Source of the DNA: an uncultured Acidobacteriaceae bacterium
GTDB lineage: Bacteria > Acidobacteriota > Terriglobia > Terriglobales > Acidobacteriaceae
Length of the DNA: 64,000 nucleotides
Assembly (NCBI GenBank): GCA_963753715.1
Contig: CAVWDK010000010.1
Location: 61,564 to 125,563 of the forward strand
Direction of reading: 5' to 3'
Shown here: piece after piece, positions 2,660 through 52,371 of the stretch
Position numbering within the stretch: position 1 is the stretch's first letter
Layout: each line of letters starts with the position of its first letter
Program-made: the position numbers and the translations under genes
The notes under the pieces: model-generated
Told to the model about the DNA's origin: nothing
Seen by the model: only the letters and a program-made list of their open reading frames with translations
Databases searched by the model: none

Positions 2660-2676
2660 AACCTTCCTTCAGTTGC

Positions 2677-35922: not shown

Positions 35923-36780
35923 ATGCAACAACCTGATGTCCGAGTCGCTGAGGCCAACAATTTCCCTGAAGAACAACCGGTGAAGGCAGATGCAATCAAA
36001 GCCCGGAATGCGAATGAATCTTCTGCGCCGGCTGCGGAGGATGGTCAAGCGAAGCCGCGCATACAGTCCGCGGTCCGGACGATCTCGATTTTGCTTGCGG
36101 TCGCCGACAGTCCCAATGGCCTGAAGGCCAAGGAGATCATGGAAAAGCTGGGGCTGTCACGCCAGGTGACCTACCACCTGATCCATACCATGCATGGTAC
36201 CGGCATTATCAGGAAGAATGACAGCAACCGGTACGTGCTGGGCCTGGCCACAGTTTCTATCGCCGAAGGTTTTAGCCGGCAGTTGGCTCCCCCTGAACAT
36301 CTTGCTCGCCGGGTGCGATCCATTGTCGCCGCGACGGGAGAAACCGCCTACGCAGGTGGCTGGCTGGATGGCGAAATTGTTGCCCTCGCCACCGCGCGCG
36401 GAGAATCTCCAGTAGGAGCGGCCCAGGTGCCCCAGGGTTACAGCGGATACGCCCATGCGCGAGCGGCGGGAAAGGTGCTTCTGGCCATGGTCGACCCTGC
36501 GACGCGCGAAGCGTATCTGGCAAAGCATCCTCTGGACGCCAGGACCAGCAAGACGATCACGGACCTCGACGAGCTCAAGAGGGAGTTCGAACAAATTCGA
36601 TCGCAAGGGTATTCGATCGACCATGAGGAGTTTCATGAGGGTCTGCAGTGTCTCGCCGTGCCGGTGGAAGGGCTGGGGGGCAGGTTTGTGCTGGGAATTT
36701 CCGTCCCAAAGCAACGCTTTGAGGCAAATTTTGAGCGATATTTAGCGGCCTTGCTCAATGTCGCAAAGATCAATGGTTGA
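35923..36780 (+). CDS. IclR family transcriptional regulator
   Basis: It has the HTH 'IQSAVRTISILLAVADSPNGLKAKEIMEKLGLSRQVTYHLIHTM' and an IclR effector domain ('GYSIDHEEFHEGLQCLAVPV'). The start is uncertain: ATG 35923 has GGGAG upstream, and the ORF is open from 35866. Confidence 0.8.
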   Translation: MQQPDVRVAEANNFPEEQPVKADAIKARNANESSAPAAEDGQAKPRIQSAVRTISILLAVADSPNGLKAKEIMEKLGLSRQVTYHLIHTMHGTGIIRKNDSNRYVLGLATVSIAEGFSRQLAPPEHLARRVRSIVAATGETAYAGGWLDGEIVALATARGESPVGAAQVPQGYSGYAHARAAGKVLLAMVDPATREAYLAKHPLDARTSKTITDLDELKREFEQIRSQGYSIDHEEFHEGLQCLAVPVEGLGGRFVLGISVPKQRFEANFERYLAALLNVAKING

Positions 36781-36853: not shown

Positions 36854-38062
36854 TCACGCCAACGGCAAACAGCTCGGACCGGCTGGCTCGAAATATTTGT
36901 AGGTCAAAACGAACTCCTCGTGCCCTAAAGCTTCCGAGGCGGTTTGCCTGCCTTGAGCCGTCGCCAACAACGAACAATAGATCTCATGGCCCAATTCATC
37001 GAGCGTGGCTAAACCCTCAAGAATGCGGCCGGCATTGATGTCCATGTCGTCCGCCATGCGTCGATAAGTCTGTGGGTTGGCGCAGATTTTGATCACCGGT
37101 GAGATGGCCGAGCCTACGACACTTCCCCTCCCCGTGGAAAACAAAATCAGGTGCGAGCCACACGCGATCAGTTCCGCGATCTCCGCATTGTCGTTGATAT
37201 TGGGAAAGCCGAAACGAACCGGCCCGTCCGGGACGATGTCGAGTAGATAGAGGCCGCCACTGGGAGGAATATCACCCGGCTTGAGGATGCCGGAAATTTT
37301 CGAGCTGCCGCTCTTGCTGTAAGCACCCATGGATTTTTCTTCCTGCGTAGTGAGGCCACCCTCGGCATTCCCCAATGCAAAACTGCCGTGTTCCAGGACC
37401 GCATAGTACCTCGCCGCCTTGGCCACCACCCCAATCAGCTCATCAGCCAACGCACCCGTTACCGCGCGTTGCGCCATAATGTGCTCACAGCCAATCAGCT
37501 CCCCCGTCTCTTCAAAGATGGCGGCTGCGTTTTGCGTAGTCAGCAAGTCAAACGCACGGCCAATTGCCGGGTTCGCGGTAATGCCACTGGTAGAATCCGA
37601 GCCTCCACAGACTGTGCCGATCACCAGCTCGCCCACATCCATCGCAGTGATGGGAGCCGGCTCCATGACTGCCAGGGTGGACTCGATCCACGCGCGCCCT
37701 TCTTCAATGGTCTTGCGCGTTCCGCCCACCTGCTGTATCACCAGCGTATCAACGGGTCTCCCACTTTGCCGGATAGCTTCTTCGAGGTTCGCCCGATCAA
37801 AGCTTTCGCAGCCCAAAGACACCAGCAACACCGCCCCCACATTCGGATGTGTACAGAGACTTGCCAGCATGCGCGAGGCATAGGCATTGGGGTAACAGCC
37901 TCCAAAACCAATCAGCTGTACTCCGCGGCCGGGAAACTGGTTCACCATTGACCGGGCGACGTGATGAGCACATTCCACCAGATAACATACAACAAGATAA
38001 TTGCGGATACCCTTGCGGCCGTCTTGGCGAAGATACCCATAGAGCTTATGGTCGCCGGGCAT
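36854..38062 (-). CDS. UxaA family hydrolase/dehydratase, large (C-terminal) subunit
   Basis: 402-aa ORF with 'GYLRQDGRKGIRNYLVV' and 'HGSFALGNAEGGLTTQEEKSMGA', typical of altronate/galactarate dehydratase-like enzymes. It overlaps the upstream SAF-domain gene by 17 nt. Confidence 0.85.
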   Translation of the reverse strand: MPGDHKLYGYLRQDGRKGIRNYLVVCYLVECAHHVARSMVNQFPGRGVQLIGFGGCYPNAYASRMLASLCTHPNVGAVLLVSLGCESFDRANLEEAIRQSGRPVDTLVIQQVGGTRKTIEEGRAWIESTLAVMEPAPITAMDVGELVIGTVCGGSDSTSGITANPAIGRAFDLLTTQNAAAIFEETGELIGCEHIMAQRAVTGALADELIGVVAKAARYYAVLEHGSFALGNAEGGLTTQEEKSMGAYSKSGSSKISGILKPGDIPPSGGLYLLDIVPDGPVRFGFPNINDNAEIAELIACGSHLILFSTGRGSVVGSAISPVIKICANPQTYRRMADDMDINAGRILEGLATLDELGHEIYCSLLATAQGRQTASEALGHEEFVLTYKYFEPAGPSCLPLA

Positions 38063-38372
38063 GGCTATCTTCCTTTCGGAGAGAATAAGTCGCCAGGTAA
38101 TTGCTCTTCATGTTATGGAGATGCACAAGCTCGCCTAACACTATATCTCGCGTGGCCGAACCTATCGAAACCCCATATTTTATTATGGATTCGTTAGTAG
38201 GTATGCTGCATCCAGCTATCTTGAAACCGAGCGGAATGTTATGCTCGATTACCACCGTATTCCCACAAATCTGCAGCGCTGTGCCGCGCGCGATGGAAGT
38301 TACCGCAGTGCAGACATTGTCCTTCGGGTTGAGAAACAGAAGACGCCGGTCGGTGATTGGCACGTCTAACAT
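38046..38372 (-). CDS. UxaA family hydrolase/dehydratase, small N-terminal (SAF domain) subunit
   Basis: 108-aa ORF with 'LNPKDNVCTAVTSIARGT...IPLGFKIA...GELVHLHNM', the SAF-domain pattern that precedes the UxaA C-terminal domain. Confidence 0.8.
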   Translation of the reverse strand: MLDVPITDRRLLFLNPKDNVCTAVTSIARGTALQICGNTVVIEHNIPLGFKIAGCSIPTNESIIKYGVSIGSATRDIVLGELVHLHNMKSNYLATYSLRKEDSHARRP

Positions 38373-38375: not shown

Positions 38376-39173
38376 TCAAAGAATCCCATATTTGCGAAAA
38401 GCATCGGTGCTCGAAGAACCAGCCTCGATTGCTTTCCGTACAACCTTCTCTCCACGGGCCTTTTCGAGCGCGCGTGCGACGGCTTCTTCTTCGATGGCGC
38501 GAGGCACAGTAACGACGCCGTCCATGTCTCCAAAAATCAGGTCTCCCGGTTCGATGTGCACTCCCCCAATCTCAACCGGACACCGGTATGCCATGATCTT
38601 CGAACGGACGCCTGCGTCCTGCGCATAGCGGCCGCGGCTGAATACCGGCCAGTTCTGCTCCAGTATGCGCACGGTGTCGCGATGGTACCCATCAATGACT
38701 GCGCCGGCAGCGCCACGAACACGCGCCGTTGCGGTAAGGATCTCACCCCAGGCGGCGCAGTTCTGCGAGCCCCCCGTCGCAACGTAGACCTCGCCCGGAA
38801 GCAGTTGGTCGAGGGCTTCCGTCATGAGACCGAATGGATCTTTTTGCTGGCTCCATGTGTCGGCAATCTGGACCGGCATCGCCCGGCCGACCACACGCAT
38901 GCTCTCCTTCATCGGTTGTATTGGTTGAGGCAGGAATTGGTGAGTATGGCCCAGGACGTCTAATACATCACCGAGGACCGCGGTGTAGAGATTCTCGGTA
39001 ATGATGCGAAACAACTCGACTTCCGTCTGCACTCTCGAATCCCTCTCGGCAAGAGCCTCACTATAGGAGCCTCGCACCACCCTGTCAACGCAAGGATTGG
39101 ACACTAAATCATCATATAGTTTGCATCGTGTCAGATGTAGATGTTTTCCTTGACAAGCCCAGATATCACACAT
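38376..39173 (-). CDS. RraA family protein (HMG/CHA aldolase-like)
   Basis: It has '[12 protein letters not shown]...', '[38 protein letters not shown]' and '[10 protein letters not shown]'. It lies directly upstream of the UxaA pair on the same strand. The N-terminal start is uncertain. Confidence 0.75.
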
Positions 39174-39239: not shown

Positions 39240-41441
39240 ATGAGATCGAAGACTCGAAATATCTACGTCTGCTCTTTCATGTCGCTGTGCATCGTCGCCA
39301 TCTTTCAAGGGCAGACTGCGAAGGATCCTGCATATGTGAATTGGAGCGATTATGGCGGAGGCCTGGATTCGATGTCCTACTCTCCTCTGCAACAGATCAA
39401 CAAAAGCAACGTGGACCAACTGACCCAGGCCTGGTTTTTTCCTGTGCCGGGAACAAGCGCCAGATTCAGCTTTAGCCCGTTGATCGTGGACGGCAAGATG
39501 TACGTGCTCGGAAAAGGCGACGAGATTGTTTCGCTCGATGCGGTCACCGGTAAAGAGATTTGGTCTCACCCTACCCAAGGCACACCCACCGACCGAGGCA
39601 TCAACTACTGGGAAAGCAAAGATCGCTCGGATCGCCGCCTCATCTTCTCGGCCGACAGTTATCTGCAGGAAATCGACGCCCGGACTGGCGAGAGCATCAC
39701 TACTTTTGGCACGGACGGGCGGGTTAATTTGCGCGAGGGTCTGGGCCGGGATCCCAAAACCATTCCACAAATTCAAACCGGCACACCCGGGCATGTTTTC
39801 AAGAAGATGATCATCCTCGGCTCGGCGACCAGCGAGGCCTATGGTTCTCCTCCCGGCGACATTCGTGCTTTTGACGTGCTCACGGGCAAGTTGATTTGGA
39901 GCTTCCACACGATTCCGCATCCAGGCGAGTTCGGTTACGACACCTGGCCCAAGGACGCGTGGAAGTACGTGGGCGGAGTGAACACGTGGGGCGAATTCGC
40001 GATCGACGCAAAACGACGGATCGGATATTTTCCTCTGGGATCGCCTACCTATGACTACTGGGGCGGTGACCGCATCGGCAAGGGCTTGTTTGGAGATTGC
40101 CTCCTGGCGCTGGATTTGCGCACGGGCAAGCGGCTGTGGCATTTCCAGACCGTGCATCATGATTTGTGGGACTACGATCCGACGACCGCACCAAAGCTTT
40201 TGACCGTGCAGCACAATGGCAAGAAGGTCGATGTGGTTGCCCAGGCGACGAAATCAGGCTTTCTGTTTGTGTTTGACCGGGTGTCGGGAAAGCCTCTTTG
40301 GCCGATTGAAGAACGGCCTGTTCCCAAGAGCGATGCGCCGGGAGAAGAGTCGTGGCCGACGCAACCCGTTCCCACCAAGCCGCCGCCGTTCGCGCGCCAA
40401 AGCTTTTCCGCAGTGGACATCAATCCCTACGTCAGCGACGAAGATAAGGCACGCTTCCTGGAGATACTACGGAACACCAATAACCACGGCATCTTTACTC
40501 CCGGAAGCGCCAACAGCGATTCCATTCAGATCCCAGCCGACGACGGCGGCGCCAACTGGGGCAACAGCGCAGCGGATCCGAAGACGGGCGTGGTGTATTT
40601 GCGCACCGCGGATTCACCCGAGCGGAAATATAAACTGACGCAGAAACTTCCGCTGATGGTTCCCCCAGGGGCGACTCCCGAGACCCAAGGCCATGTGATC
40701 TTTTCTCAGCTATGCCAGGGATGTCATGGCCCAAACCGCTCTGGTGTGATGTCTCCCAAAGACATTGGGATCGACAAGTTCAAGAAGATTGTCACCGGCG
40801 GCGAAGGCGAGATGCCCGGCTTCTCCGACCTGCCCGCGCACTATCTGGATGCGCTGGCCGCATACATATCGAATCCATCTGCGGCTGCCCCGACGACGCC
40901 GCGAAGAGCCGGCGCCGGCGGCGGTATGGAACGGCTGCCACCGCCGCCAGGCATTACACGCTACTTTGGCAATTACGAAAACCGAATTCTCTCCAAGGAC
41001 GGTCTTCCCGCCATCAGCCCGCCATGGACCTCGCTGGTGGCCATCGATCTGAACGACGGAGAGATTCGATGGAGGGTTCCACTGGGTGTTGTGCCCGGAC
41101 TCGCAGCCAGAGGCATCAAAGACACTGGCTCGGCGAAGGTGACGCTGGCGTCAAACAGAACCGCGCCCCTGGTGACAGCCGGCGGCTTGGTTTTCGTGGC
41201 CAGCTGGGCCGACCGCACGATTCATGCCTTCGACAAAGACACTGGCAAACTGCTTTGGGAGAAGGAGCTTGCAGCAAATCCCGAAGGGCTGCCGTCAGTC
41301 TATGAAGTCGACGGCCGCCAATACATCGTCTTCTGTGCATCGGGGCATCCGCCGGAAACCGCGCTCGCCGAGGGATTCGCATGGAAAGCAGGCAAAGCCG
41401 AGGCGCAAGGCTACTACGTCTTTGCGTTACCTAAGCAGTAA
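39240..41441 (+). CDS. PQQ-dependent dehydrogenase (beta-propeller) with an embedded mono-haem cytochrome c module, exported
   Basis: After a signal peptide it has the quinoprotein motifs 'NWSDYGGGLDSMSYSPLQQIN', 'DAVTGKEIWS' and 'LLALDLRTGKRLWHFQTVHHDLWDYD'. CQGCH (40713-40727) with a downstream 'GEMPGF' lies before the last propeller blades ('AIDLNDGEIRWRVP...HAFDKDTGKLLWE'). Confidence 0.85.
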   Translation: MRSKTRNIYVCSFMSLCIVAIFQGQTAKDPAYVNWSDYGGGLDSMSYSPLQQINKSNVDQLTQAWFFPVPGTSARFSFSPLIVDGKMYVLGKGDEIVSLDAVTGKEIWSHPTQGTPTDRGINYWESKDRSDRRLIFSADSYLQEIDARTGESITTFGTDGRVNLREGLGRDPKTIPQIQTGTPGHVFKKMIILGSATSEAYGSPPGDIRAFDVLTGKLIWSFHTIPHPGEFGYDTWPKDAWKYVGGVNTWGEFAIDAKRRIGYFPLGSPTYDYWGGDRIGKGLFGDCLLALDLRTGKRLWHFQTVHHDLWDYDPTTAPKLLTVQHNGKKVDVVAQATKSGFLFVFDRVSGKPLWPIEERPVPKSDAPGEESWPTQPVPTKPPPFARQSFSAVDINPYVSDEDKARFLEILRNTNNHGIFTPGSANSDSIQIPADDGGANWGNSAADPKTGVVYLRTADSPERKYKLTQKLPLMVPPGATPETQGHVIFSQLCQGCHGPNRSGVMSPKDIGIDKFKKIVTGGEGEMPGFSDLPAHYLDALAAYISNPSAAAPTTPRRAGAGGGMERLPPPPGITRYFGNYENRILSKDGLPAISPPWTSLVAIDLNDGEIRWRVPLGVVPGLAARGIKDTGSAKVTLASNRTAPLVTAGGLVFVASWADRTIHAFDKDTGKLLWEKELAANPEGLPSVYEVDGRQYIVFCASGHPPETALAEGFAWKAGKAEAQGYYVFALPKQ

Positions 41442-41461
41442 GAAACATCGAGAGGATTGCA

Positions 41462-43261
41462 ATGCGCTGCAGAATGCAGGAATTGGCTCGTAGTCACCCA
41501 TCAACGGTGCGAGTGGGGACAAGCCTCCTCGTTCTGTTCGTCATTGTCCTCATTGGCCCCGGAATATTCGCGCAAACACAATCAAGCGATCCGAACAAGA
41601 ACCCCAGCGGAGGCGAGAAGGCAGGCCCTGGCAGCTTCACGCAGCCGTCTATGTCCGTGCGGCCCGCGGATCGAGGCAGGCTGCGCACCAGTGCGGCCAC
41701 GATATTAGGCTGGCGCCTCGGAGTACGAACGGATGCTTCCCTCACCTTCTGGGATGGCGTGCAGAAAGCCGACGCTGCCGGCCTTTCCGCAGTCGAAGGT
41801 GTGAACACGCAGAATGTCAGCGCGGACATTCCCAAACCCCTTGACTACCACCTGACTGACGACGAAGTCGCGAAGGTGAAAAACAGGCTCGATGAATTGC
41901 GCCTGCGCATGCCGGCGTACTTCCTCGCTGCGCTCCCGGGCGACGACAGCTCTCAACGCAAGGCATTCGAGTTTGCCAAGGAGCTCGGCGCGGACATGAT
42001 CATTGTTCCGGCCGATCCACCATCGTTCGCTGCACTCGACAAGCTGGCGAACGACACGGGCATGAACGTGGCCGTCGTTAGCCAAAACACAGCCGCCGCC
42101 ATGAACGCACTCGAACATCTCAGCAGCCACATTGGATTGCGTGTGCCTGTCGAGGAAGTACCGCAGGCAAAGGACCGGGTGCTTGCCGTTACCCTGCACA
42201 ACGTCGCGGATGCGTCACCCTTCCTTCTGCAATTGAGCCGTCTCCAACCGCCCGCCATTCAAGCGGATTGGCCGCCGGCACACGACGGCGGCGCCAAACG
42301 GTCGGAAGGCAAGCCTTTATTTTTCTCGCTTGATCGTAAGCAGCCCGGCCTTGCGCAAGCAGCAGCAGCTTATGATCAAGCCGTTCTTCCCGCAATTGCC
42401 TGGCGCATCGATACGCTCTCCCGCATGCAGACCATCTCCACGCCTGACAAGCTCCCTGCCGATGTCAGGAAGAAAATCGATGCGGCTATTCCCAGGGAAG
42501 CCCTGGTAAAGCCAGAGCGGCCACGCAAACTTCTGGTTCTGGATTTATGTGTCGATGGCGGTTACTATCACGCTTCCATTCCAGACGGAAACCTCGCTCT
42601 CGAACTCATCGGCAAGTACACCGGCGCCTATGTACCTACCTTCAGCAACGACCTCGACAATCTGAAATACCCGAAGATCAAAGAATACGATGCGGTCTTC
42701 CTGAACAGCGTGGAGGGCGAGCTGTTCATTGACCCGGAGGTGATCGGCGGCCTGACGCGATTCGTCTCGGAAGGAGGTGGCGTGGCCGCACTGCATGCCG
42801 CAACATTTGCCAGCGTCGATGTACCGGCATACGGAGAGCTCATCGGCGCGCAGACAGGGGCGCACAAATACAACGGAGAGATGGGCACACTGCGGATTGA
42901 CGATCCGGACAGCCCTCTCACCAAACAGTTTGAAGGCAAAGATTTCGACTACTTCGACGAGTTCTACCATTTTCTGCCCACCGGGCCATACTCGCGAGAA
43001 AAGCAACATATCCTGTTGAGCCTCGATCCGGCAAAAACTGAGCAGTCCGCCAACCGTTACACGACGCGGCCTGACAACGACTATGGGATGGTATGGATCA
43101 AAAGCTATGGCAAAGGGCGAGTCTTCACTTGCGCTTTAGGACACCGGCCGGAATTCTATGAGAATGCCAACATGATGCAGTTGCTTCTGGCGGCAACCCA
43201 GTTTGTCCTGGGCGACCTGAAAGCCGATACCACACCGAGCGCGCAGCTCACCAAGAAATGA
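41462..43261 (+). CDS. Exported fusion protein: xylose-isomerase-like TIM-barrel N-domain plus ThuA domain
   Basis: The C-terminal half has the ThuA pattern ('LLVLDLCVDGGYYHASI...YDAVFLNSVEGE...GGGVAALHAA...GKGRVFTCALGH'). The N-terminal half resembles sugar-phosphate isomerase/epimerase TIM barrels. It has a signal/anchor N-terminus and a 20-nt gap from the PQQ gene. Confidence 0.7.
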   Translation: MRCRMQELARSHPSTVRVGTSLLVLFVIVLIGPGIFAQTQSSDPNKNPSGGEKAGPGSFTQPSMSVRPADRGRLRTSAATILGWRLGVRTDASLTFWDGVQKADAAGLSAVEGVNTQNVSADIPKPLDYHLTDDEVAKVKNRLDELRLRMPAYFLAALPGDDSSQRKAFEFAKELGADMIIVPADPPSFAALDKLANDTGMNVAVVSQNTAAAMNALEHLSSHIGLRVPVEEVPQAKDRVLAVTLHNVADASPFLLQLSRLQPPAIQADWPPAHDGGAKRSEGKPLFFSLDRKQPGLAQAAAAYDQAVLPAIAWRIDTLSRMQTISTPDKLPADVRKKIDAAIPREALVKPERPRKLLVLDLCVDGGYYHASIPDGNLALELIGKYTGAYVPTFSNDLDNLKYPKIKEYDAVFLNSVEGELFIDPEVIGGLTRFVSEGGGVAALHAATFASVDVPAYGELIGAQTGAHKYNGEMGTLRIDDPDSPLTKQFEGKDFDYFDEFYHFLPTGPYSREKQHILLSLDPAKTEQSANRYTTRPDNDYGMVWIKSYGKGRVFTCALGHRPEFYENANMMQLLLAATQFVLGDLKADTTPSAQLTKK

Positions 43262-43270
43262 TGTTCAACC

Positions 43271-45469
43271 GTGATGCGTTTCCTGCTGCTACCTGCTTTT
43301 ACCGGGATGCTTCTCGCCGCTAACGTTCGGTTGGCAGCGCAGGATATCGACTCCATCGTCACCTCGGCAAGCCGCAGCTCCGCGACCATCGCCGACGGGA
43401 TCAAAGATCCTGCCGAGCGCGCCGCGTTTATCAACATCGCGAAGACCACTGACCCGCAAAAGCTGCTCGCCCTCACGCGGTCGTTTCTCGATAGCTATCC
43501 GCGGTCTGCATTCCTCGCGCCGGTGGCCGAGGGAGCAGCCCGTGCAAGCTTCGACCTTGGGCATTTGCAATCAGGCTTGGACTATGCCCGGTTCTCGCTC
43601 TCGTTGCTGCCTGAGAATCCACTGCTGTTGGTTGCGGTTGCCGATGTCCAGGCTGTTCTCCATGAGAACGAAGCAGCGATAGCCAGCGCTCGCGGTGCGC
43701 TCGATTACCTGGAACGCTTTGATCGCCCACTCAAGATTTCGGCGAAGGATTGGCCGGATACAAAGAAGCAGCAGCAGGCGACGGCGTGGTTCGTGATCGG
43801 GCGCGCACTGGTCAACGAAGCCCTTCAGGAAGCACCGAGTCTGAATCGAAAATCACTCCTGAACCAGGCAATCTCCGCGCTCAACCACGGCCGCGCTCTG
43901 GAGCCTGGCGATATGGAGATCGTCTACCTGCTCGGCGTCGCCCACGCATCAGCAAATGAATCTTCGCAGGCAGCGCTGGCGTTTGCTACGGTGTACCGGC
44001 AAAATACAGAACTCGCCGCGAAAGCGCGGGAACAATTGACGGCCATCTATCAGGCAGCCAAACCCGCAGGACAAAGCTTTGACGACTTTGCCGGCAACCT
44101 GGAGAAACAAGCAAGCCTTTCGCCGTCACCGCCAGCCGAGACTGAGGCCTCCACGACCAAACAACCCGGTTACGCGGGCTCTCAAGCTTGCAGCCGATGC
44201 CATGTCGATATTTACCGCCAATGGTCGCAGAGCGGCATGGCGAAGATGCTGCGGCCCTATTTGCCACAAAACGTGATCGGTGATTTCGAGAAGAAGAACG
44301 AGTTCTTCACCGGCGACGATATCCGCTACCGCGACGGCAAGCTGGAGATCACTCCCCATGACAATCGCGCTCTGTTTGCGCGCATGGTCATCCGCGGTGG
44401 CCGTCACTACTTCGACATCAAGGAATCAGACGGCCGGTGGCACTCCTATCCCGTCGACTACACCATCGGGTCCAAGTGGCAGCAGGCTTATGCCACCACA
44501 CTGCCCAATGGACAGATCCACGTCTTTCCCATCCAGTACAGTGCGGTGGCGAAGCAATGGCTCAACTACTGGAAGATTATCGACGCCCCAGGCAGTGAGC
44601 GTGCCAACCCGCTTAACTGGGAGAAGCTCGATGGCGCCACCAGCTACCAATTGAATTGTGCCGGGTGCCATACCAGCCAACTGCGTAATACATTGGGCGG
44701 CGGCATGGCTATGGACGATGTTGTCTTTCGCGAACCGGGAATCAACTGCGAGATGTGCCACGGGCCGGCCGGCGCCCACGTGGAGGCAATGACCACCGGC
44801 AAGTTCTATGCCAAACAGCCTTTCGATCCACCGGTCGATTTCCGCCGCCTCACCAATCGCCAATTTGTCGCCATCTGCGCGCAGTGCCACATGCAGTCCA
44901 ATGTGCACCTGGGCAACGCCCAGGGAGAGTTGAACTATTCCAGCAACGGCACGTTTTTTCTCAAGAATGCCGCGTTGCCGTTGGGCGAATTTACCCGCGG
45001 CGCCTTCTTCCGCGATGGCCGTTTTACGCAGGCTACGTTCATGGTCGAAGCACTGGAGCGTTCTCAATGCTTTCGCAAGGGCCAGGCCAGTTGCGGAACC
45101 TGCCACGATCCGCACGGACACGACGAGTCCTCCAACCTTACTTCGCTCAAATTCAAAGACCAACCCGACCGGATGTGTACCGGCTGCCACACTCAGTTTG
45201 AAGATAAAACGCAGGCTGCTGCACACTCCCATCATTTGATCGAGAGCGAGGCCAGCCGCTGTGTCTCCTGCCACATGCCCCGCATTGTGGATGGCATGCT
45301 GTTGCGCGTGCGTTCGCACCAGATCGACGATATCCCGAACGCAGAAATGACGATGCGCTTCGGCCAGCAAGACAGCCCGAACGCATGTTTGCTCTGCCAC
45401 TCGGAGAAGACTCCGGAGTGGGTTCAGGGCCAATTGCGGGCCTGGAAACACAACCCAGGGAAAGGATAG
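43271..45469 (+). CDS. Exported TPR-repeat protein fused to an octahaem c-type cytochrome domain
   Basis: It has a signal peptide, a TPR-like helical N-terminal region of about 270 aa and then eight CxxCH motifs (CSRCH, CAGCH, CEMCH, CAQCH, CGTCH, CTGCH, CVSCH, CLLCH). The gap from the ThuA gene is 9 nt. Confidence 0.8.
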   Translation: MMRFLLLPAFTGMLLAANVRLAAQDIDSIVTSASRSSATIADGIKDPAERAAFINIAKTTDPQKLLALTRSFLDSYPRSAFLAPVAEGAARASFDLGHLQSGLDYARFSLSLLPENPLLLVAVADVQAVLHENEAAIASARGALDYLERFDRPLKISAKDWPDTKKQQQATAWFVIGRALVNEALQEAPSLNRKSLLNQAISALNHGRALEPGDMEIVYLLGVAHASANESSQAALAFATVYRQNTELAAKAREQLTAIYQAAKPAGQSFDDFAGNLEKQASLSPSPPAETEASTTKQPGYAGSQACSRCHVDIYRQWSQSGMAKMLRPYLPQNVIGDFEKKNEFFTGDDIRYRDGKLEITPHDNRALFARMVIRGGRHYFDIKESDGRWHSYPVDYTIGSKWQQAYATTLPNGQIHVFPIQYSAVAKQWLNYWKIIDAPGSERANPLNWEKLDGATSYQLNCAGCHTSQLRNTLGGGMAMDDVVFREPGINCEMCHGPAGAHVEAMTTGKFYAKQPFDPPVDFRRLTNRQFVAICAQCHMQSNVHLGNAQGELNYSSNGTFFLKNAALPLGEFTRGAFFRDGRFTQATFMVEALERSQCFRKGQASCGTCHDPHGHDESSNLTSLKFKDQPDRMCTGCHTQFEDKTQAAAHSHHLIESEASRCVSCHMPRIVDGMLLRVRSHQIDDIPNAEMTMRFGQQDSPNACLLCHSEKTPEWVQGQLRAWKHNPGKG

Positions 45470-45521
45470 AAGGAGAGTCAAACGACCTGCTTCCTTGATC
45501 AGGCAACAATCGACCGGGTGC

Positions 45522-45554
45522 CCCACATCTCGCTCGTTTTTCGCGAGATGTGGG
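45522..45554 (+). terminator. Perfect 12-bp hairpin after the octahaem gene (REP-like, possible terminator)
   Basis: CCCACATCTCGC (45522-45533) and GCGAGATGTGGG (45543-45554) are exact reverse complements around the loop TCGTTTTTC. A related unit (...GAGGGGCACCC) occurs at about 7452-7500. Confidence 0.45.
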
Positions 45555-45739
45555 ATACCACAGCACTTCACGTGCAACTCTGTCGGTTGTCATTGGAAAG
45601 CGAGAGTGAGGCATCTGCTGTCCGCGCGGACTCCTGAGAGCCTGTCGAAGCGGCCACCCCAACCTGATCCACCCCGGACACCTCTCAATTGACATCACCA
45701 ATTTCGAACGCCGATAATCCATTGTTTATCAACTTAGAA

Positions 45740-47692
45740 ATGCAGGACCGGGGATTCATGTATCTACTTGCGCATGGCTCGCGAAGGAACTCGTTGCTGG
45801 TTGGTCTGCTGACCGTGTCTTCCCTCACCGCGAGCTCAGGCGCCCATGCGCAGCAGACACAGCCCACTCCTCCCATCTACGGCGGTAACCCACAGTCCCA
45901 GGAGTCGGGTTCGGCGACGGGCGGCGTGTTCGCGCCCGTACTCGACTCGGAGAAGAGGCCGATCACTGCGGGTGGCTTCGTCAAGACCGGGCCCATCGTC
46001 TTCCAGGATGTCTCAAAAAAAGGGGGCTTGACCGTCTGGCGCCACAGGATGGGAAACCCGGAGAAGAATTACATCCTGGAAACAACCGGTTCCGGCGTGG
46101 CCTTGCTGGACTACGACCACGATGGCTGGATCGATATCTACCTGGTGAACGGCTCGACCTACGAAGCAATGGATGGCAAGGCTGAGCCTCCACATGCTGC
46201 CCTCTTCCATAACAATCACGACGGCACTTTTACCAATGTTGCCGAGAAGGCTGGGGTAACCAACGGCCGCTGGGGCTACGGCGTGGCTGTGGGAGACTAT
46301 GACAACGACGGCTGGCCGGATCTGTATGTGAGCAATTTCGGCAAGAACCGTCTCTTTCACAATAACCATGATGGGACGTTCACCGACGTTGCGGAACAAG
46401 CCGGAGTGACCCTCGGCAACTGGTCGAATGGAGCCACCTTTGGTGACTATGACGGTGACGGTAAGCTGGACCTGTTTGTCCCCGGCTACGTCCATTACGA
46501 CTTGAAGAACCCTCCTCCTTCCGGAGCCGGCGACGCAGCCCATTCGTTCTGCCAATACCGCGGAGCCACCGTCATGTGCGGCCCTCGCGGCCTGCCCGGC
46601 GAGCCCGATCACCTGTTCCACAACAACGGCGATGGCACCTTCACCGACGTAAGCGAAAAAGCCGGCGTGAGTGACAAACGCCACTATTTCGGTTTCTCCT
46701 CGACTTTCGTCGACATCAATAACGACGGCAAACTTGACCTGATTGTGGCCAATGACTCGACGCCCAATTATCTCTACATCAACAAAGGCGATGGCACATT
46801 CCAGGATGCGAGCTTCTTCTCCGGCTTCGCTCTGAACCAGGAAGCTCGCGAGACTGCCTCGATGGGATTGGCCGTGGGGGATTACCTGAACAATGGCCTG
46901 GTCGATCTCTACACGACCACCTTTTCCGACGATTACAAAACCCTCTTCCGTAACGAAGGAGGAGGCAACTTCTCCGAGATCACCGAGCAGATGGGCATCG
47001 CCCAGGTGACCTATCCCTTCCTGAGCTGGGGCACCGAATTCATCGACTACGACAATGACGGATGGAAGGACATCATGTCGGTCAGCGGTCACGTCTACCC
47101 CCAGGTGGACAAGCATCACCTCGATTGGGGCATGACGTTTGCGGAGCGTCCTTTGCTGTTTCACAACCTCGACAAAGGCAAACGCTTCGAGCTGGTACCC
47201 GCGGTGGAAGGTACCGGGCTCGCCGATGTCATTCCGGGCCGTGGAGCAGCCTTCGGTGATCTGTTCAACGACGGAAAGGTCGACGTGGTCGTCAACTGCA
47301 TCGACCACACCCCGGTCCTGCTTCGTAACGTGAATGGGGATACCAACCACTGGGTAGGCCTTTCCCTGATTGGCGGACCCAAGGGACCTCGCGATGCCAT
47401 CGGAGCTGTCGTGTATCTCACTGCCGGCGGCATCCGTCAACGTGCGGATGTGATGAGCGGCGGCAGTTACGAATCCTCGAACGACCAGCGCCTTCACTTT
47501 GGGTTGGGGCAAGCGGCCAAGGTCGAGGCTGTCGAGATTCACTGGCCCAGCGGCTCCGTCGAAAAGGTTAGTTTGCCGGCGGTCGATCGATTCTTCATGA
47601 TTGAAGAAGGCAAAGGAGTTGTGCCCAGCGTCTACGATGCCATGGCGAAGAATTCGTCCCCGGCGCGGGGGGCCAGTACGAGCCCCAAATGA
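45740..47692 (+). CDS. CRTAC family protein (FG-GAP/VCBS repeats plus ASPIC/UnbV C-terminal domain), exported
   Basis: It has repeated 'D(Y/F)D(N/H)DGW.D(I/L)' calcium-binding FG-GAP motifs with 'LFHNNHDGTFT(D/N)VAE.AGV'. The C-terminal 'HWVGLSLIGGP...AIGAVVYLTAGG..Q...GGSYESSNDQRLHFGLG....VEIHWPSG' is the UnbV_ASPIC domain. The ORF is open from 45689. Confidence 0.85.
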   Translation: MQDRGFMYLLAHGSRRNSLLVGLLTVSSLTASSGAHAQQTQPTPPIYGGNPQSQESGSATGGVFAPVLDSEKRPITAGGFVKTGPIVFQDVSKKGGLTVWRHRMGNPEKNYILETTGSGVALLDYDHDGWIDIYLVNGSTYEAMDGKAEPPHAALFHNNHDGTFTNVAEKAGVTNGRWGYGVAVGDYDNDGWPDLYVSNFGKNRLFHNNHDGTFTDVAEQAGVTLGNWSNGATFGDYDGDGKLDLFVPGYVHYDLKNPPPSGAGDAAHSFCQYRGATVMCGPRGLPGEPDHLFHNNGDGTFTDVSEKAGVSDKRHYFGFSSTFVDINNDGKLDLIVANDSTPNYLYINKGDGTFQDASFFSGFALNQEARETASMGLAVGDYLNNGLVDLYTTTFSDDYKTLFRNEGGGNFSEITEQMGIAQVTYPFLSWGTEFIDYDNDGWKDIMSVSGHVYPQVDKHHLDWGMTFAERPLLFHNLDKGKRFELVPAVEGTGLADVIPGRGAAFGDLFNDGKVDVVVNCIDHTPVLLRNVNGDTNHWVGLSLIGGPKGPRDAIGAVVYLTAGGIRQRADVMSGGSYESSNDQRLHFGLGQAAKVEAVEIHWPSGSVEKVSLPAVDRFFMIEEGKGVVPSVYDAMAKNSSPARGASTSPK

Positions 47693-47777
47693 CCGCTTTG
47701 CATTCACAAACGGGCTGGATGGGTGTATACCAGTTCCCAGGCCTCCCCGCGCCTGTCATCCTCTGGAGGAATAGAGA

Positions 47778-49982
47778 GTGAAGACCTTATTCCTGCGCGG
47801 GCTTCTGATGGTATCCGTCGTCGCCGCGGCCCTTTGTTTTGCAAAGGCCACCATCAAGGCCGCCTCCAACGAGGACCCTGCCCGCAAGGAATACGCCGAT
47901 AAGATTCGTGCTACCTACAATTACCGGTTTGGCAAAGACCACCCTTCCACGCCTGGCAATGCGACGATGGAAGACGACGACTTTGTTCAACCGGGCGCCT
48001 TCCCGGACGCAAAGTACTGCGGGCATTGTCATCAGGAAGCGCTCCACCAATGGCGGCAGGCCCTGCATTCGAATTCCTTCCGCACGCCGTTTTACCGCAC
48101 CAGTGTAAATATCCTGATTCGAACGAAAGGCATTGAGTTCTCCCGCCACTGCGATAGCTGCCACAACCCGATTGCCGTATTGTCCGGCGCCCTGACCCAG
48201 GACTCGCAAGTGGACCGCAGCTTCGATAAAGACGGTCTCACCTGCACCACGTGTCACTCCATTGAGAGCTTGAAGTCGACCAATGGTAATGGCGGCTTTG
48301 TCATGGCGATTCCCGCAGTGATGGTGGACGAAAACGGCCATCGCATTCCGGGCGAAGTTCCGTATGACGAGATCATGAAGTACCCCAAGCGCCACGATAT
48401 GGCCATCATGAAGCCCTTCTACCGGACACCCGAATTCTGCGCCGCTTGCCACAAGGCCAATTTGCCCGACACGCTGAACGACTACAAATTTATCCGCGCC
48501 TTTACCACCTACGACGAATGGCAGCAATCCAAGTTCTCGCAGCAAAATCCGCTGACCTTTTACACCGCCGACTTCACTACCTGCCAGGGCTGCCACATGA
48601 AACGAGCGGCCAATACCCTTCCTGAGCCGGGTGCAAAAAACGGCACCTTTGCTTCGCATAGCTGGCCGGCGGGAAACACGGCTGTTCCCTTCTATTACGG
48701 GTTTGATGAACAACTAAAAAAGACAACCGATTTCCTGAAAGCTGGAAACTATCTGAACGTGGACATTTTTGCGCTCCAGAAGGCCAACGATGACAAGATC
48801 ATTGGACCGCTCGGTTCCGTCCCTTTTAACCTCGACCCGAATGAAGTGGTGCAAGCCCTGGTGGTGATCCAGAACAAAAACATCGGCCACTCACTGATTC
48901 CGGAAGTGCGCGATCTCTACGAGGCCTGGGTCGAGTTCACCGCCAGGGACGCTACAGGTAAGGAGATCTATCACAGTGGCTTTATCAAGCCCGATGGCGC
49001 GCTGGACGAACGGGCACACAGTTTCACCAACCGGCCTGTCAACGTCGACGGCGGATTCGTCGATAATCACAAAGTCTGGACTATCCACTCGGTAGCCTAC
49101 GACAACTCTGTCCAGGCAGGCAGATCGGTGTTAGTGCGCTACCAGTTCCGGCTGCCGTCTGACTTGAAGGGCCCCATCACCATTACCGCGAAAGTGAACT
49201 ACCGGCATCTTCGCCAGAGCTATCTGAACAACATTTTTGGCCCCGATCATCCGGCCTATCCAATCGTGGAGATTGCATCGCGGAGCCGTGTTTTGCATTC
49301 CGGCGAGAATCGTCCTTGCCCGCCTGAAGCCGGCGACAACCCCGACTGGATGCGCTGGAACAATCTGGGCATTGCGTATCTCGACCAGGCGCAATACTAC
49401 GACGCGGTGCGCGCGTTTACTGAAGTAGCCAAACTAAGACCGGACTACGCCGATGCCTATACCAACGTCGCTTTGGCAGAAATTCAGTGGGAGAAATACG
49501 ATTCTGCCCGCGCCAGCATTACACGCGCCCTGGCTGTGAGCCCGGATAACCCGCGCGCCCTCTACTACCTTGCCCAGTTACAAAGACGGGCCGGTGAGTA
49601 CGACGCCGAGATCGCCAACTTGAAAAAAGTGGCCGAGCAATTCCCTGCTTCGCGCGATGCCCGGCGCGATCTTGGCCTCGCCTATTACCGGCGGCGCGAC
49701 TATCCGGCGGCCAGAATACAGTTTGAAGCGGTGCAGCAGATCGACCCGGACGATCTGAGTGCCCACTACAACCTGTCGATCATCTACCGGCGTATGGACA
49801 TGGAACAGAAGGCCGCGGAGCAACAAGCCGAGTTCATTACCAAGAAGTTCGACCCTGGAGCCCCCACGTACTCCTTCGACTTCCTGCGCCAGCACCCGGA
49901 GATATCGATCGAGAGTATTCCCCAGCATGTGCATACCGATCTTCCTTACGAAGCTAAGCCATCCCACGCGGGAGCTCAGTAG
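47778..49982 (+). CDS. Exported pentahaem c-type cytochrome fused to a C-terminal TPR domain
   Basis: GTG start with GGAGG upstream, a signal peptide and five CxxCH motifs (CGHCH, CDSCH, CTTCH, CAACH, CQGCH). A middle domain of about 200 aa is followed by C-terminal TPRs ('YYDAVRAFTEVAKLRPDYADAYTNVALAE...'). Confidence 0.8.
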   Translation: MKTLFLRGLLMVSVVAAALCFAKATIKAASNEDPARKEYADKIRATYNYRFGKDHPSTPGNATMEDDDFVQPGAFPDAKYCGHCHQEALHQWRQALHSNSFRTPFYRTSVNILIRTKGIEFSRHCDSCHNPIAVLSGALTQDSQVDRSFDKDGLTCTTCHSIESLKSTNGNGGFVMAIPAVMVDENGHRIPGEVPYDEIMKYPKRHDMAIMKPFYRTPEFCAACHKANLPDTLNDYKFIRAFTTYDEWQQSKFSQQNPLTFYTADFTTCQGCHMKRAANTLPEPGAKNGTFASHSWPAGNTAVPFYYGFDEQLKKTTDFLKAGNYLNVDIFALQKANDDKIIGPLGSVPFNLDPNEVVQALVVIQNKNIGHSLIPEVRDLYEAWVEFTARDATGKEIYHSGFIKPDGALDERAHSFTNRPVNVDGGFVDNHKVWTIHSVAYDNSVQAGRSVLVRYQFRLPSDLKGPITITAKVNYRHLRQSYLNNIFGPDHPAYPIVEIASRSRVLHSGENRPCPPEAGDNPDWMRWNNLGIAYLDQAQYYDAVRAFTEVAKLRPDYADAYTNVALAEIQWEKYDSARASITRALAVSPDNPRALYYLAQLQRRAGEYDAEIANLKKVAEQFPASRDARRDLGLAYYRRRDYPAARIQFEAVQQIDPDDLSAHYNLSIIYRRMDMEQKAAEQQAEFITKKFDPGAPTYSFDFLRQHPEISIESIPQHVHTDLPYEAKPSHAGAQ

Positions 49983-49999
49983 CGCGATTCACTGCCCGA

Positions 50000-50494
50000 A
50001 TGAGATATCTCACGCTAGCTCTCTTTGCGCTTCTGGCTCCAAGGCCCGCACTCTGCCAGGCGAGCCCTGGCTGTCCCTGGCTCAACCTCGCCACCGCCTC
50101 CGGAGTTCTCAGGAGCAGCGAGAACGGAAGTATGGCGACCTTGTCCCAGGGCAGCAAGGAGGTCTGCACGTTCCTCTACCACGACGCAACCACATCGCGT
50201 GAGCTGCGCATCACCACGGAAGAGGTGCAGGACCCAAAGCAGGCCATGACGCGCTACAAGGCCCGTTGCAGCGGCAAAGTGTTGCCTTTAAGGGCGATTG
50301 GCAATGAGGCGGTGATGTGTGCAGCGGCCATCCAAGGCCAAGCCGAGACAGAGCAAGTGATTGGCCGCGTGCGCGACCAGATCTTTACCGTCGCCATCAC
50401 CACCAGCGTTCGGAACGATCCCTCCATGTCTGGTGACGCGCTCAAGGAGAAAACCAGAAACGTAGCGGAGCAAGTAGCTGGCGCGCTCTTCTGA
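50000..50494 (+). CDS. Small exported hypothetical protein (Cys-containing)
   Basis: 164-aa ORF 17 nt after the pentahaem gene with a signal peptide (MRYLTLALFALLAPRPALCQA). I recognised no family. Confidence 0.55.
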   Translation: MRYLTLALFALLAPRPALCQASPGCPWLNLATASGVLRSSENGSMATLSQGSKEVCTFLYHDATTSRELRITTEEVQDPKQAMTRYKARCSGKVLPLRAIGNEAVMCAAAIQGQAETEQVIGRVRDQIFTVAITTSVRNDPSMSGDALKEKTRNVAEQVAGALF

Positions 50495-50592: not shown

Positions 50593-51150
50593 TCAGAGCG
50601 CGGGCTTTGCTGGATGCCACAAGCGTGAGGTGGTGTCTTTTTCGTATCCTTTGCCGTTGGGAAAGCTGACCAGTTCAAACTGCATGCCCCACGGCGAAAG
50701 GAAATAAATCCACGTCTGCCCCGCATTGGGCCCGGCGGTTCTGACGGTTGGCTTGCCCAGAAGCTGAACACCTTTGGCGGAAAGATAAGCCACTGCAGCG
50801 TCGAAATCATCCACGTAGAAAGCCAGATGATGGCCACCGACATCGCTGTTTTTGGGCGGAGTTAGATTTTGATCGGGTGCCTCGTACTGAAAAATCTCAA
50901 AGTTCGGACCGAACTTGCAGCGGAAGAAACGCAGCCTGCGCATCACCGTTCTGGGGTGAACGTTGAGATGTTTTTCCATCCAGTCATCTTCCGCAACAAA
51001 GGGGCCCAGCTCAAACATGTATTCGCACCCGATGACGTCGACAAAAAATCTGGTCGCTGCTTCCAGGTCGGGCACGGTGAAGCCTACATGCTCTGTTCCT
51101 CGCAGGCCAGGAATGCCTGAAGCAGGCTGGATACTGGGTTTGGATGACAA
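50593..51150 (-). CDS. VOC family protein (glyoxalase/bleomycin resistance/dioxygenase fold)
   Basis: 185-aa ORF with 'TEHVGFTVPDLEAATRFFVDVIG' and 'GGHHLAFYVDDFDAAVAYLSAKG', the paired beta-alpha-beta-beta-beta modules. Confidence 0.8.
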   Translation of the reverse strand: MSSKPSIQPASGIPGLRGTEHVGFTVPDLEAATRFFVDVIGCEYMFELGPFVAEDDWMEKHLNVHPRTVMRRLRFFRCKFGPNFEIFQYEAPDQNLTPPKNSDVGGHHLAFYVDDFDAAVAYLSAKGVQLLGKPTVRTAGPNAGQTWIYFLSPWGMQFELVSFPNGKGYEKDTTSRLWHPAKPAL

Positions 51151-51270: not shown

Positions 51271-52371
51271 TTGCAGATCACAAAAGTGCAAATCGCGGAG
51301 TGCGGTATACCCCTTCCCTACATTCTGCGTTTAGGTCCGGTTGAGATTCGCACACGGGACTATGTGCTTCTTCGCTTGGAAACCGACGCAGGTGTATGCG
51401 GCGAAGCAGTGGGCTATCCGCGAGGGACCCCTCTGTTCGATACCTTGAGCAGCATGGCGCGCCGCATCCTGGGCAAAGACGTTCGCATGCGGCGGCAGAT
51501 GATGTTTAACCTCGAGTACTCCAATGTTCCCGCGCGCGCAGGACTGACGCGCGGCCTTAGCCTGATCGATATTGCGTTGTGGGATATCGCCACGAAGCGG
51601 GCAGGACAGCCACTGTTCCAGTTTCTCGGCGGTCTGCGTACAGCGGCTGACGTGACCACCGTGGCCGGCTACTACGTTGATCAACGCGGGATTGGGGACG
51701 TCGTGAAAGAGGTGGGTCTGCTTGAGGATGCCGGCTGCAAACGGGTAAAGATCATGCTGAAGGGCGACGACCGCGACTTCGATAAGAAATATGCTTCGGC
51801 GGTAGCAGAGAAAATGCCGGGAAGAGTGGCAGCGGACGCTCATTGGACCTGGAGCACATTGACCGAGGCCAAGAGAGCCTGCCTTGACATCGATGAATTG
51901 GGTCTGAACTTCCTCGAAGATCCTTTTGCCGCTTCCGACATACGGCTGACGCACCAGATACGCAATGAACTGACCACTCCCATCGCGGCCGGCGAGGATG
52001 TGTTTGGAGCAGGAGTCGTCGCCGACCTGGTGAGCGGTATCGACCTGCTGCGTGTGGATGCCACGACGGTGGGGGGAATTACCGGCGCCATCGAAGCCAT
52101 CCATCTCGCCGCGGCGGCCGGCAGGACTGTATTCCCCCACGTCTTTGCGCCGCTGCATGTTCATCTTGCCTGCGCATTCCCCAATGTCGAAGCAGTCGAA
52201 TGGATCACGCAGGAGAGCGGCGCCGACCCCTTGGATCAGTTCCTACAAAACATCCCATCTATCGAGCGCGGACAGATGAGCCCAAGCGAAGAGCCGGGCA
52301 TCGGTATCTCCATCGATTGGAGTAGAGTCGAGAAACTGTCACGAAGGAACGCTGTGATTAGCGAAAGTTGA
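51271..52371 (+). CDS. Mandelate racemase/muconate lactonizing enzyme family protein (enolase superfamily)
   Basis: 366-aa ORF with a TTG start. It has the capping domain 'ITKVQIAECGIPLP...LLRLETDAGVCGEA' and the barrel motifs 'KIMLKG', 'LNFLEDPF' and 'PIAAGED'. Confidence 0.8.
   Translation: MQITKVQIAECGIPLPYILRLGPVEIRTRDYVLLRLETDAGVCGEAVGYPRGTPLFDTLSSMARRILGKDVRMRRQMMFNLEYSNVPARAGLTRGLSLIDIALWDIATKRAGQPLFQFLGGLRTAADVTTVAGYYVDQRGIGDVVKEVGLLEDAGCKRVKIMLKGDDRDFDKKYASAVAEKMPGRVAADAHWTWSTLTEAKRACLDIDELGLNFLEDPFAASDIRLTHQIRNELTTPIAAGEDVFGAGVVADLVSGIDLLRVDATTVGGITGAIEAIHLAAAAGRTVFPHVFAPLHVHLACAFPNVEAVEWITQESGADPLDQFLQNIPSIERGQMSPSEEPGIGISIDWSRVEKLSRRNAVISES

Follow-up and report, generated by a model that had tools for sequence, protein, structure and literature searches.

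The window analysed here is a stretch of 64,000 nucleotides (nt) from an uncultured Acidobacteriaceae bacterium (contig CAVWDK010000010.1), and all coordinates below are positions in this 64-kb window. Between 39240 and 50494 it carries an 11-kb run of six consecutive, co-directional open reading frames (ORFs) on the + strand, which we label g1 to g6. An earlier interpretation, here called the sequence-only reading, had taken these six genes for one module. In this paper we report that the run is composite. Unit A consists of g1, an optional g2, and g3, and lies in a sugar-acid catabolic locus, while unit B consists of g4, g5 and g6 and is a strongly conserved module, apparently undescribed, in which hundreds of soil bacteria pair a CRTAC-family protein with a pentahaem cytochrome. 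To the full reading, that the run is two juxtaposed units of which unit B would work as a periplasmic electron-transfer complex, we give a probability of roughly 60%.

Domains were called by Pfam and NCBIfam profile searches, and remote relatives were sought in the PDB with sequences or profiles. Much of the earlier description is borne out. All six ORFs are on the + strand, and each N-terminus, read from the sequence, has a basic stretch followed by a hydrophobic one, as expected of exported proteins. The CxxCH motifs of g1 to g6 number 1, 0, 8, 0, 5 and 0, exactly the 1 + 8 + 5 = 14 counted before. The domain assignments agree with Pfam and NCBIfam, except that a TIM barrel in g2 is marginal and the N-terminal tetratricopeptide repeat (TPR) region of g3 is visible at profile level only. 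The sugar-acid context seen in the adjoining divergent RraA-like/UxaA-type dehydratase operon and the IclR and SDR genes agrees both with Pfam and with the genes that recur beside g3, and our literature searches found nothing on the combination of parts, which had been said to match no described system. The gaps from g1 to g6 measure 20, 9, 219-288, 85 and 17 nt, the third of them being 288 nt if g4 starts at the ATG at 45758, the start that is kept in relatives. The genome loci closest to the window come from Acidobacteriaceae metagenome-assembled genomes (MAGs), and the window encodes CarboxypepD_reg/OMP-barrel receptors of the Acidobacteria type.

Conservation of the run and its internal boundary

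When genomes were scanned with an alignment of g5, 523 species representatives proved to have relatives, and 80 loci with 10-kb flanks were kept. Every protein of the window was compared with these loci, and all ORFs were clustered (81 loci). In 78 of the 80 loci g5 has a CRTAC gene as its same-strand neighbour, one exception being a contig end, and g6 follows the pair in 76. These loci span Acidobacteriaceae, Bryobacterales and Solibacteraceae. The order g4-g5-g6 is found mainly in Acidobacteriaceae (Tunturiibacter, Granulicella, Silvibacterium, Edaphobacter and Paracidobacterium), and the order g5-g4-g6 mainly in Bryobacterales, Solibacteraceae and other Terriglobia, together with some MAGs labelled Acidobacteriaceae; between the two orders g5, which is conserved to an unusual degree, is 67-72% identical, g4 about 45% and g6 about 40%. 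Cultured carriers of the g4-g5-g6 trio are Tunturiibacter species, Granulicella sp. S190, Silvibacterium bohemicum and Paracidobacterium acidisoli. Apart from some stand-alone TPR gene, the neighbours of unit B are otherwise not conserved, and in at least 60 loci they are unrelated.

A Terracidiphilus contig (L075) bears two convergent g4-g5 pairs, at 2378-6590 and 10301-14309 of that locus, the g5 of the second being 66% identical to g5 of the window; the module therefore has paralogues within a genome.

The pairing is ancient and extends to far more distant cytochromes. Metagenome contigs were scanned with an alignment of distant g5 relatives (27-32% identical, 840-1030 residues), and of the 64 loci that were informative, 62 have a CRTAC gene as the next gene downstream in the same orientation; of 49 pairs measured, 30 have cytochrome and CRTAC ORFs that overlap by 1-4 nt. 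The same arrangement is present in L090 and in L171, a 3.2-Mb contig. Cluster names for these metagenome clades yield a single Pyrinomonadaceae record. Their third gene often encodes a TPR::FG-GAP::UnbV fusion, with a TPR_CcmH_CycH match of 50.8 bits, and such a fusion ties TPR to CRTAC modules in the manner of a Rosetta stone. The fusion proteins are about 1100 residues long (L161, 9396-12697; similar in L123-L170) and comprise TPR, FG-GAP and UnbV_ASPIC regions followed by a C-terminal region of about 350 residues that has no family.

The first three genes behave differently from unit B. In the ORF clustering g5 was present in 81 loci, g4 in 71 and g6 in 57, as against 17 for g1, 16 for g3 and 11 for g2, and only in loci whose g5 is about 75% or more identical to that of the window do g1, g2 and g3 stand upstream of g4-g6. 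Even among these close relatives the arrangement varies: in L001 g1 is followed by g4, without g2 and g3; L006, L007 and L019 have no g2; L005, L014 and L018 have none of g1-g3; and in L020 a g1-g2-x-g3 segment is inverted relative to g4-g6. Conversely, three loci have the backbone of genes that surrounds the run in the window and no g2 or g4-g6, with g3 alone (L082) or with g1 directly ahead of g3 (L083 and L086). From these presence and absence variants and the backbones without unit B it follows that the cluster of the window is a backbone with g1 and g3, an optional g2 and an inserted g4-g6. The co-occurrence of CRTAC and TPR-multihaem genes, which the sequence-only reading had proposed as a subject for a neighbourhood survey, is found in nearly all of both sets of loci. 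Its six-gene system is another matter, since that reading had itself named conservation beyond very close relatives as the measure, and the arrangement is not kept there; the interpretation is therefore supported only in part.

The boundary between the units carries a signal of its own. A sigma-70-like promoter candidate for g4-g6 lies at 45689-45718 on the + strand (TTGACA, 18 nt, GATAAT); it matches the consensus at 11 of 12 positions and is joint-best in a 12.4-kb scan in which the total number of hits is that expected by chance. In 11 of 11 aligned relatives the two hexamers are kept at the same spacing, as is the ATG at 45758, whereas the remainder of the g3-g4 spacer is not conserved. 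This promoter-like footprint suggests that g4-g6 are transcribed separately from g1-g3. A scan of the region for terminators gave nothing beyond chance level, and an Rfam scan returned one transfer RNA only, with no riboswitch or leader in the cluster.

The g3-g4 gap of the window is unusually long because of an insertion of about 190 nt at 45479-45672, which holds a perfect hairpin with a 12-bp stem (45522-45533 pairing with 45543-45554). It is missing from the spacers of 10 relatives, which are 96-185 nt long. Intergenic copies with 81-100% identity occur in L006 (3), L019 (4), L087, L144 and L007, and their presence at several places in related loci marks the insertion as a dispersed small repeat that looks like a REP/MITE-type element.

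Proteins of unit B and their distant relatives

The core of unit B is g5 (47778-49982, +), which encodes a putative exported pentahaem cytochrome with a probable Ig-like beta domain and a C-terminal TPR region. Pfam matches are to C554, to MtrC_II-IV and, over residues 522-690, to many TPR models; the NCBIfam match to ExtKL is weak, and TPR_CcmH_CycH, at 24.6 bits, is under its cut-off of 42. The five CxxCH motifs (at C81, C125, C156, C221 and C269) and four further histidines (H97, H206, H294 and H371) are invariant in 45 diverse relatives. A first PDB profile search with full-length g5 relatives was swamped by TPR matches. With trimmed sequences, a profile of residues 40-515 built from diverse relatives matched 5ze8, the low-potential pentahaem cytochrome c552 of Thermochromatium tepidum, at E 7.6e-14; the match is strong across haems 1-3 and weaker at haem 5 and the beta domain, where a GHxxPxG motif is aligned. 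By sequence, g5 is a member of the PHC family (T. tepidum c552/ExtKL type). In an AlphaFold2 model built from 18 sequences, beta strands occupy residues 326-511 with pLDDT 50-84; a fold search with the model returned TPR proteins only and is therefore uninformative on the haem part. Across Terriglobia g5 is 67-97% identical; at 50% identity the family comprises 471 clusters (E up to 1e-30), and a C-terminal TPR region is also found in 8 of 10 sampled clusters. A look-up of the exact g5 sequence in public assemblies gave no record.

The PHC family includes T. tepidum c552, ExtKL and GSU2801 of Geobacter and the sPHC and lPHC proteins of cable bacteria, and no clear role has been assigned to it (PMC11976967). 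g5 shares with these proteins five CxxCH motifs in the same order and, after them, the GHxxPxG motif in what is probably an Ig-like beta domain. It differs in having a C-terminal TPR domain of about 170 residues and an obligate CRTAC gene partner, and in lacking the selenocysteine or extra cysteine, the truncated-haemoglobin domain and the extKL porin-cytochrome context of other members. As the function of c552 is not established, membership in the family gives g5 a fold and not a role.

The partner, g4 (+ strand, with possible starts at 45689, 45740 and 45758 and an end at 47692), encodes a putative exported CRTAC1-family protein with an FG-GAP propeller and a UnbV_ASPIC domain. Five FG-GAP_3 repeats (E 1e-51, 173.6 bits) and UnbV_ASPIC (E 3e-20, 72.3 bits) are both over cut-off, and human CRTAC1 (PDB 9ETN) is matched at E 4.7e-17. 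In 91 sequences of the g4 family, repeated D-x-D/N-x-D-G-x-x-D columns are at least 90% conserved and probably form calcium-type loops; other conserved residues are two cysteines, H288, H445, M369 and R495. Vertebrate CRTAC1 has the FG-GAP propeller and the UnbV_ASPIC domain in common with g4, but no EGF-like module was detected in g4, whose gene is tied to that of a multihaem cytochrome.

The accessory gene, g6 (50000-50494, +), encodes a putative exported protein of 164 residues with four invariant cysteines (C25, C56, C90 and C107), a CPWLN.ATA motif and a C-terminal ..AGALF; it has 728 homologues and no Pfam family. An AlphaFold2 model (pLDDT 86) is an alpha/beta sandwich with weak PDB neighbours, Tsi3 and PsbP (TM-score 0.40-0.45). 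A function for g6 was not drawn from this fold, since the matches to Tsi3, PsbP, TiME and the PknH sensor are all weak (TM-score 0.29-0.45, E >2e-3). In public records, members of the family are often annotated as 120 residues from an internal methionine (ATG 50132), as in P0157, which is 100% identical over 73% of g6; the short form loses the conserved signal peptide and CPWLN.ATA with Cys25, and the form of 162-164 residues is conserved family-wide.

The distant cytochromes of the metagenome loci (L091-L171) carry an additional N-terminal domain with 4-5 predicted transmembrane segments (for example L161, 4753-5400). Two of its predicted intramembrane histidines, H95 and H162, are invariant in 66-67 of 68 sequences, the invariant histidines lying in an HxxxG motif and in a second helix, and two more are present in most representatives. 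The conserved histidines suggest that this domain may be a haem-b or quinol-contact module. In Geobacter, CbcL and ImcH are inner-membrane quinol oxidoreductases in which a membrane domain is fused to a multihaem c domain. The distant g5 relatives appear to resemble them in architecture, having a polytopic, histidine-bearing membrane domain joined to a periplasmic multihaem domain; no sequence relationship between CbcL/ImcH and the g5 family was detected, and g5 of the window has no membrane domain.

Unit A and the sugar-acid locus

The first gene of unit A, g1 (39222 or 39240 to 41441, +), encodes a putative exported pyrroloquinoline quinone (PQQ) beta-propeller dehydrogenase with a mono-haem cytochrome c domain. 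The Pfam PQQ match is strong (E 1.5e-170, 569 bits), and Cytochrome_CBB3 (E 1.3e-8) is inserted at residues 488-549. In the PDB, g1 comes closest to type II quinohaemoprotein alcohol dehydrogenases (1yiq, E 5e-41), with which it shares an eight-bladed PQQ propeller and one c haem in a single chain; its cytochrome domain lies inside the propeller sequence, however, and is not a C-terminal appendage. Unlike the membrane glucose/quinate PQQ dehydrogenases, g1 has no membrane anchor. It scores under the NCBIfam cut-offs of both TIGR03074 (glucose/quinate; 374 against 832.65 bits) and TIGR03075 (methanol/ethanol; 208.7 against 480.05 bits).

The optional member, g2 (41462-43261, +), encodes a putative exported protein with a C-terminal ThuA domain (residues 366-581; E 2e-30, 107 bits against a Pfam cut-off of 33.4). 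At its N-terminus the AP_endonuc_2 match is weak (13.5 bits against a cut-off of 31.1, E 0.06), and PDB 4kw2 is matched at E 8e-6 across residues 83-210, so that this domain is possibly a xylose-isomerase-like TIM barrel. A separate AP_endonuc_2 gene with a twin-arginine (TAT) signal stands beside g2 in L009, L010, L012, L013, L015 and L020. In these relatives the TIM-barrel protein has 309 residues and its gene lies between g2 and g3 (L009, 3000-3929), and a TAT-signal protein of 525 residues with a weak CE2_N-like C-terminus is encoded between g3 and g4 (L009, 6207-7784). These two extra TAT-signal genes in close relatives show that the region is a hot spot where carbohydrate-related periplasmic genes are gained and lost.

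The third gene, g3 (43271-45469, +), encodes a putative exported octahaem c cytochrome with a TPR-like helical N-terminal third, whose profile matches LapB, BBS4 and MamA at E 1e-3 to 1e-4. Of the genes in the run, it is the constant member of the sugar-acid backbone. Pfam matches are to Paired_CXXCH_1, C554 and C7, and the family has more than 1200 homologues of about 730 residues each. In PDB searches the haem-region profile matched OcwA (6i5b, E 4.5e-11), 6qvm (E 1.1e-6) and c554 (1bvb, E 5.3e-5). All eight haem sites are CxxCH, and the CxxCK site of the catalytic haem in the OcwA/NrfA/c554 superfamily is absent from g3. Cys600, seven residues ahead of the fifth CxxCH (C-x7-CxxCH), is invariant in 20 of 20 aligned homologues and could be an active-site or cross-link residue. 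OcwA of Thermincola (PDB 6I5B; PMC6703420), which is related to NrfA-, c554- and OTR-type multihaem cytochromes, resembles g3 in the haem region. It has nine haems where g3 has eight, and g3 differs further in its TPR-like N-terminal third, its invariant extra cysteine, its Gram-negative host and its setting in a sugar-acid catabolic locus as opposed to extracellular electron transfer. Between the haem cores of g3 and g5, hhalign detects a remote relationship (probability 96%, E 1.9e-9).

The backbone locus that surrounds the run was assigned with Pfam. Upstream are genes for an SDR protein (34807-35658, -), an IclR regulator (35866-36780, +), a GD_AH dehydratase (36854-38062, -), a SAF-domain small subunit (38046-38372, -) and an RraA-like protein (38376-39173, -); downstream are genes for a glyoxalase-fold protein (50593-51150, -) and an MR/MLE enolase-superfamily dehydratase (51271-52371, +). 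The upstream genes also flank g3 homologues in L082 and L086, and the glyoxalase and MR_MLE genes come directly after g3 in L082, L083, L084 and L086, all of which are without unit B; g3 homologues borne on such backbones are 57-68% identical to g3. The backbone order is RraA-like protein, SAF small subunit and GD_AH, then glyoxalase, MR_MLE, TPR protein, TonB-type receptor and E1 dehydrogenase. Neighbours that recur beside g3 homologues include MR_MLE, GD_AH, RraA, IclR, RhaT, FAA-hydrolase, LutABC and TonB-type receptor genes. In a second recurrent context (L081 and L085) these are LutABC, FAA hydrolase, a CRTAC paralogue, RhaT, MR_MLE, g3, a g3 paralogue with a C-terminal TPR, IclR and a receptor, a gene set that presumably corresponds to the non-phosphorylative L-rhamnose/L-fucose route.

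The stand-alone TPR protein of the locus (52390-53676, -; 428 residues) matches many TPR models, among them TPR_CcmH_CycH at 49.5 bits against a cut-off of 42. It clusters with TPR genes beside unit B in 52 loci at an identity of only 25-28%; a stand-alone TPR gene flanks unit B in most other lineages, and an identity of 25-28% does not establish its orthology to the gene of the window. We considered this protein as a fourth member of unit B and rejected it, because the same gene accompanies g3 in loci without unit B and because it is so little identical to the TPR genes of unit B.

A TAT-signal protein (57898-58986, +) with a weak alpha-L-fucosidase match (E 7e-5) is encoded between TonB-type receptor genes at 53812-57480 and 59328-62870, and together these genes are consistent with a fucose/rhamnose-glycan utilisation locus. 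The sugar-acid locus is bounded on its left by a single tRNA-Ser gene (anticodon CGA; 34631-34720, +), which stands between the SDR gene and a gene for a SulP/STAS transporter. Elsewhere in the window, a CarboxypepD_reg/OMP-barrel receptor gene is split into three ORFs (14457-15731, 16126-16788 and 16873-17781) and is probably a pseudogene or the product of assembly frameshifts; the interval from 14 to 20 kb has a strong negative GC skew. An ORF of 219 residues (23213-23872, -) with a partial RVT_1 match, among short unassigned ORFs and an FtsX fragment (21371-22135), may be a retroelement remnant.

Proposed electron transfer and the alternatives

Unit A would be a periplasmic oxidation unit inside a conserved deoxy-sugar and sugar-acid catabolic locus, in which g1 would oxidise a periplasmic sugar and pass the electrons through its own haem to the OcwA-like g3. 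In unit B the TPR tail of g5 would dock the CRTAC propeller of g4 and, in Terriglobia, also the small disulfide-bonded g6. The five haems of g5 would then carry electrons between the electron-transport chain of the cell and a site that the CRTAC partner helps to form or organises. Where distant relatives are anchored, the membrane domain would wire the complex to the quinone pool; g5 of the window is soluble, so its redox partner would have to be another periplasmic carrier. Given the variable six-gene arrangement, the backbones without unit B and the promoter-like site, a flow from the sugar dehydrogenase to the CRTAC/TPR proteins is possible in this lineage, as is cross-talk between g3 and g5; the conservation pattern neither selects the one nor requires the other.

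Several observations weigh against this account. The genome loci link unit B to no substrate gene, terminal enzyme or conduit through the outer membrane, and many carriers of unit B belong to genera that we take to be aerobic heterotrophs. A cluster of histidine, cysteine and methionine residues for a redox metal, as in NosZ or thiocyanate dehydrogenase, was sought in the CRTAC conservation and none is evident; since the CRTAC partner has calcium-type motifs only, the site it shares with the cytochrome may not be catalytic. The haem part of the g5 model is poor (mean pLDDT 48). The membrane domain of the distant cytochromes has no Pfam match, and haem b is proposed from its conserved histidines. 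Two distant relatives, P0395 and P0379, have no adjacent CRTAC gene. Transfer from g1 to g3 is proposed from their adjacency, and g3 also occurs without g1. A porin-cytochrome conduit of the MtrCAB or ExtHIJKL type was considered and rejected, as no conserved barrel gene stands beside unit B in 80 + 80 loci; the window's TonB-type receptor is a component of the backbone and not of unit B.

Some of these same observations suit another role for unit B, that of an envelope module for redox sensing or structure: its haems would sense the redox state of the periplasm while the TPR and CRTAC parts build or anchor an envelope or exopolymer structure. The conservation of CRTAC is of a calcium-binding and structural kind only, the TPR parts resemble the assembly scaffolds PilW, PrsT, GltE and LapB in NCBIfam, the PsbP/Tsi3-like fold of g6 is, on weak matches, of a binding type, and no substrate-related gene is linked to the unit. 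We nevertheless consider it unlikely: five highly conserved haems in a PHC wire exceed what a sensor usually needs, the membrane domain fused to the distant cytochromes, with its invariant histidines, speaks for an exchange of electrons with the membrane, and neither a signalling output domain nor an exopolysaccharide gene is conserved nearby.

A single extracytoplasmic pathway, as originally pictured, would have g1 and g2 oxidise a sugar or polyol and feed a 14-haem chain of g3 and g5 held on TPR/FG-GAP scaffolds with g4. The co-directional genes with short gaps, the sugar-acid catabolic context, the remote relationship of the g3 and g5 haem cores, the g3 homologues near other CRTAC paralogues in L081, L085 and L087 and a distant PHC-TPR gene, one without a CRTAC neighbour, that adjoins Gfo/Idh/MocA and AP_endonuc_2 genes all speak for it. 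Yet the six-gene order is limited to close relatives and is variable among them, up to the inversion in L020; unit B occurs at its many other loci among unrelated neighbours, the backbone is found without unit B, and a conserved promoter-like site precedes g4. A single pathway is accordingly quite unlikely, and the 14-haem sugar-oxidation system is better described as a lineage-specific juxtaposition, which corrects the original picture.

It is very unlikely that the TPR or CRTAC proteins are dedicated chaperones (NrfG/CcmI-like) or anchors for cytochrome maturation or localisation. TPR_CcmH_CycH does match the stand-alone TPR protein, the TPR::CRTAC fusion and g5, and most loci with g3 or g5 also have a stand-alone TPR gene; these matches, however, reflect generic TPR similarity and are outscored by many other TPR models, five canonical CxxCH sites need no special lyase, and a calcium-binding propeller of 600 residues that is translationally coupled across clades of 30% identity would be an atypical chaperone. 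No ccm or nrf genes lie near the stand-alone TPR protein of the window. The absence of any functional link, with adjacency due to chance or to high CRTAC copy number, is hardly credible, for although CRTAC paralogues are numerous (extra copies in L014, L022-24, L051, L061, L068, L073, L075 and L099-L168) and the ASPIC/UnbV family is expanded in Ca. Solibacter (PMC3174227), same-strand adjacency in nearly all genome and metagenome loci, with overlaps of 1-4 nt and fusions, is far over the expectation from copy number.

Literature searches found no published description of UnbV/ASPIC/CRTAC1 or FG-GAP proteins paired with multihaem cytochromes, and none of a ThuA, PQQ and cytochrome c combination. 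The nearest case is that of hydrazine-synthase-like clusters of non-anammox bacteria, in which a CRTAC1-family gene lies between genes for periplasmic haem c proteins (PMC12758564). Those haem proteins are homologues of hydrazine synthase (HZS) alpha and beta-gamma and not of PHC, and no TPR is reported. The clusters are an independent precedent for a link between CRTAC and haem proteins.

The module bears on both of its families. Soil and aquatic bacteria have very many CRTAC1/ASPIC proteins, and to our knowledge no bacterial member has an established function; a near-obligate and often translationally coupled pentahaem partner is the first functional context for them, and a testable one. With several cultured carriers of the trio, genetics and biochemistry are feasible. 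For the PHC family, the conserved partner and the membrane-anchored version with invariant histidines suggest how its members connect to the respiratory chain. We hold tentatively, as a possibility short of an expectation, that PHC-TPR cytochromes and CRTAC proteins make up a widespread and unrecognised extracytoplasmic redox machine, in quinone-wired versions with a new haem-b-like domain or in soluble ones, with CRTAC binding or converting the substrate. If true, this would assign a first biochemical function to the CRTAC1/ASPIC family, and bacterial respiration or periplasmic oxidation would gain a new branch, in soil Acidobacteriota and in other phyla.

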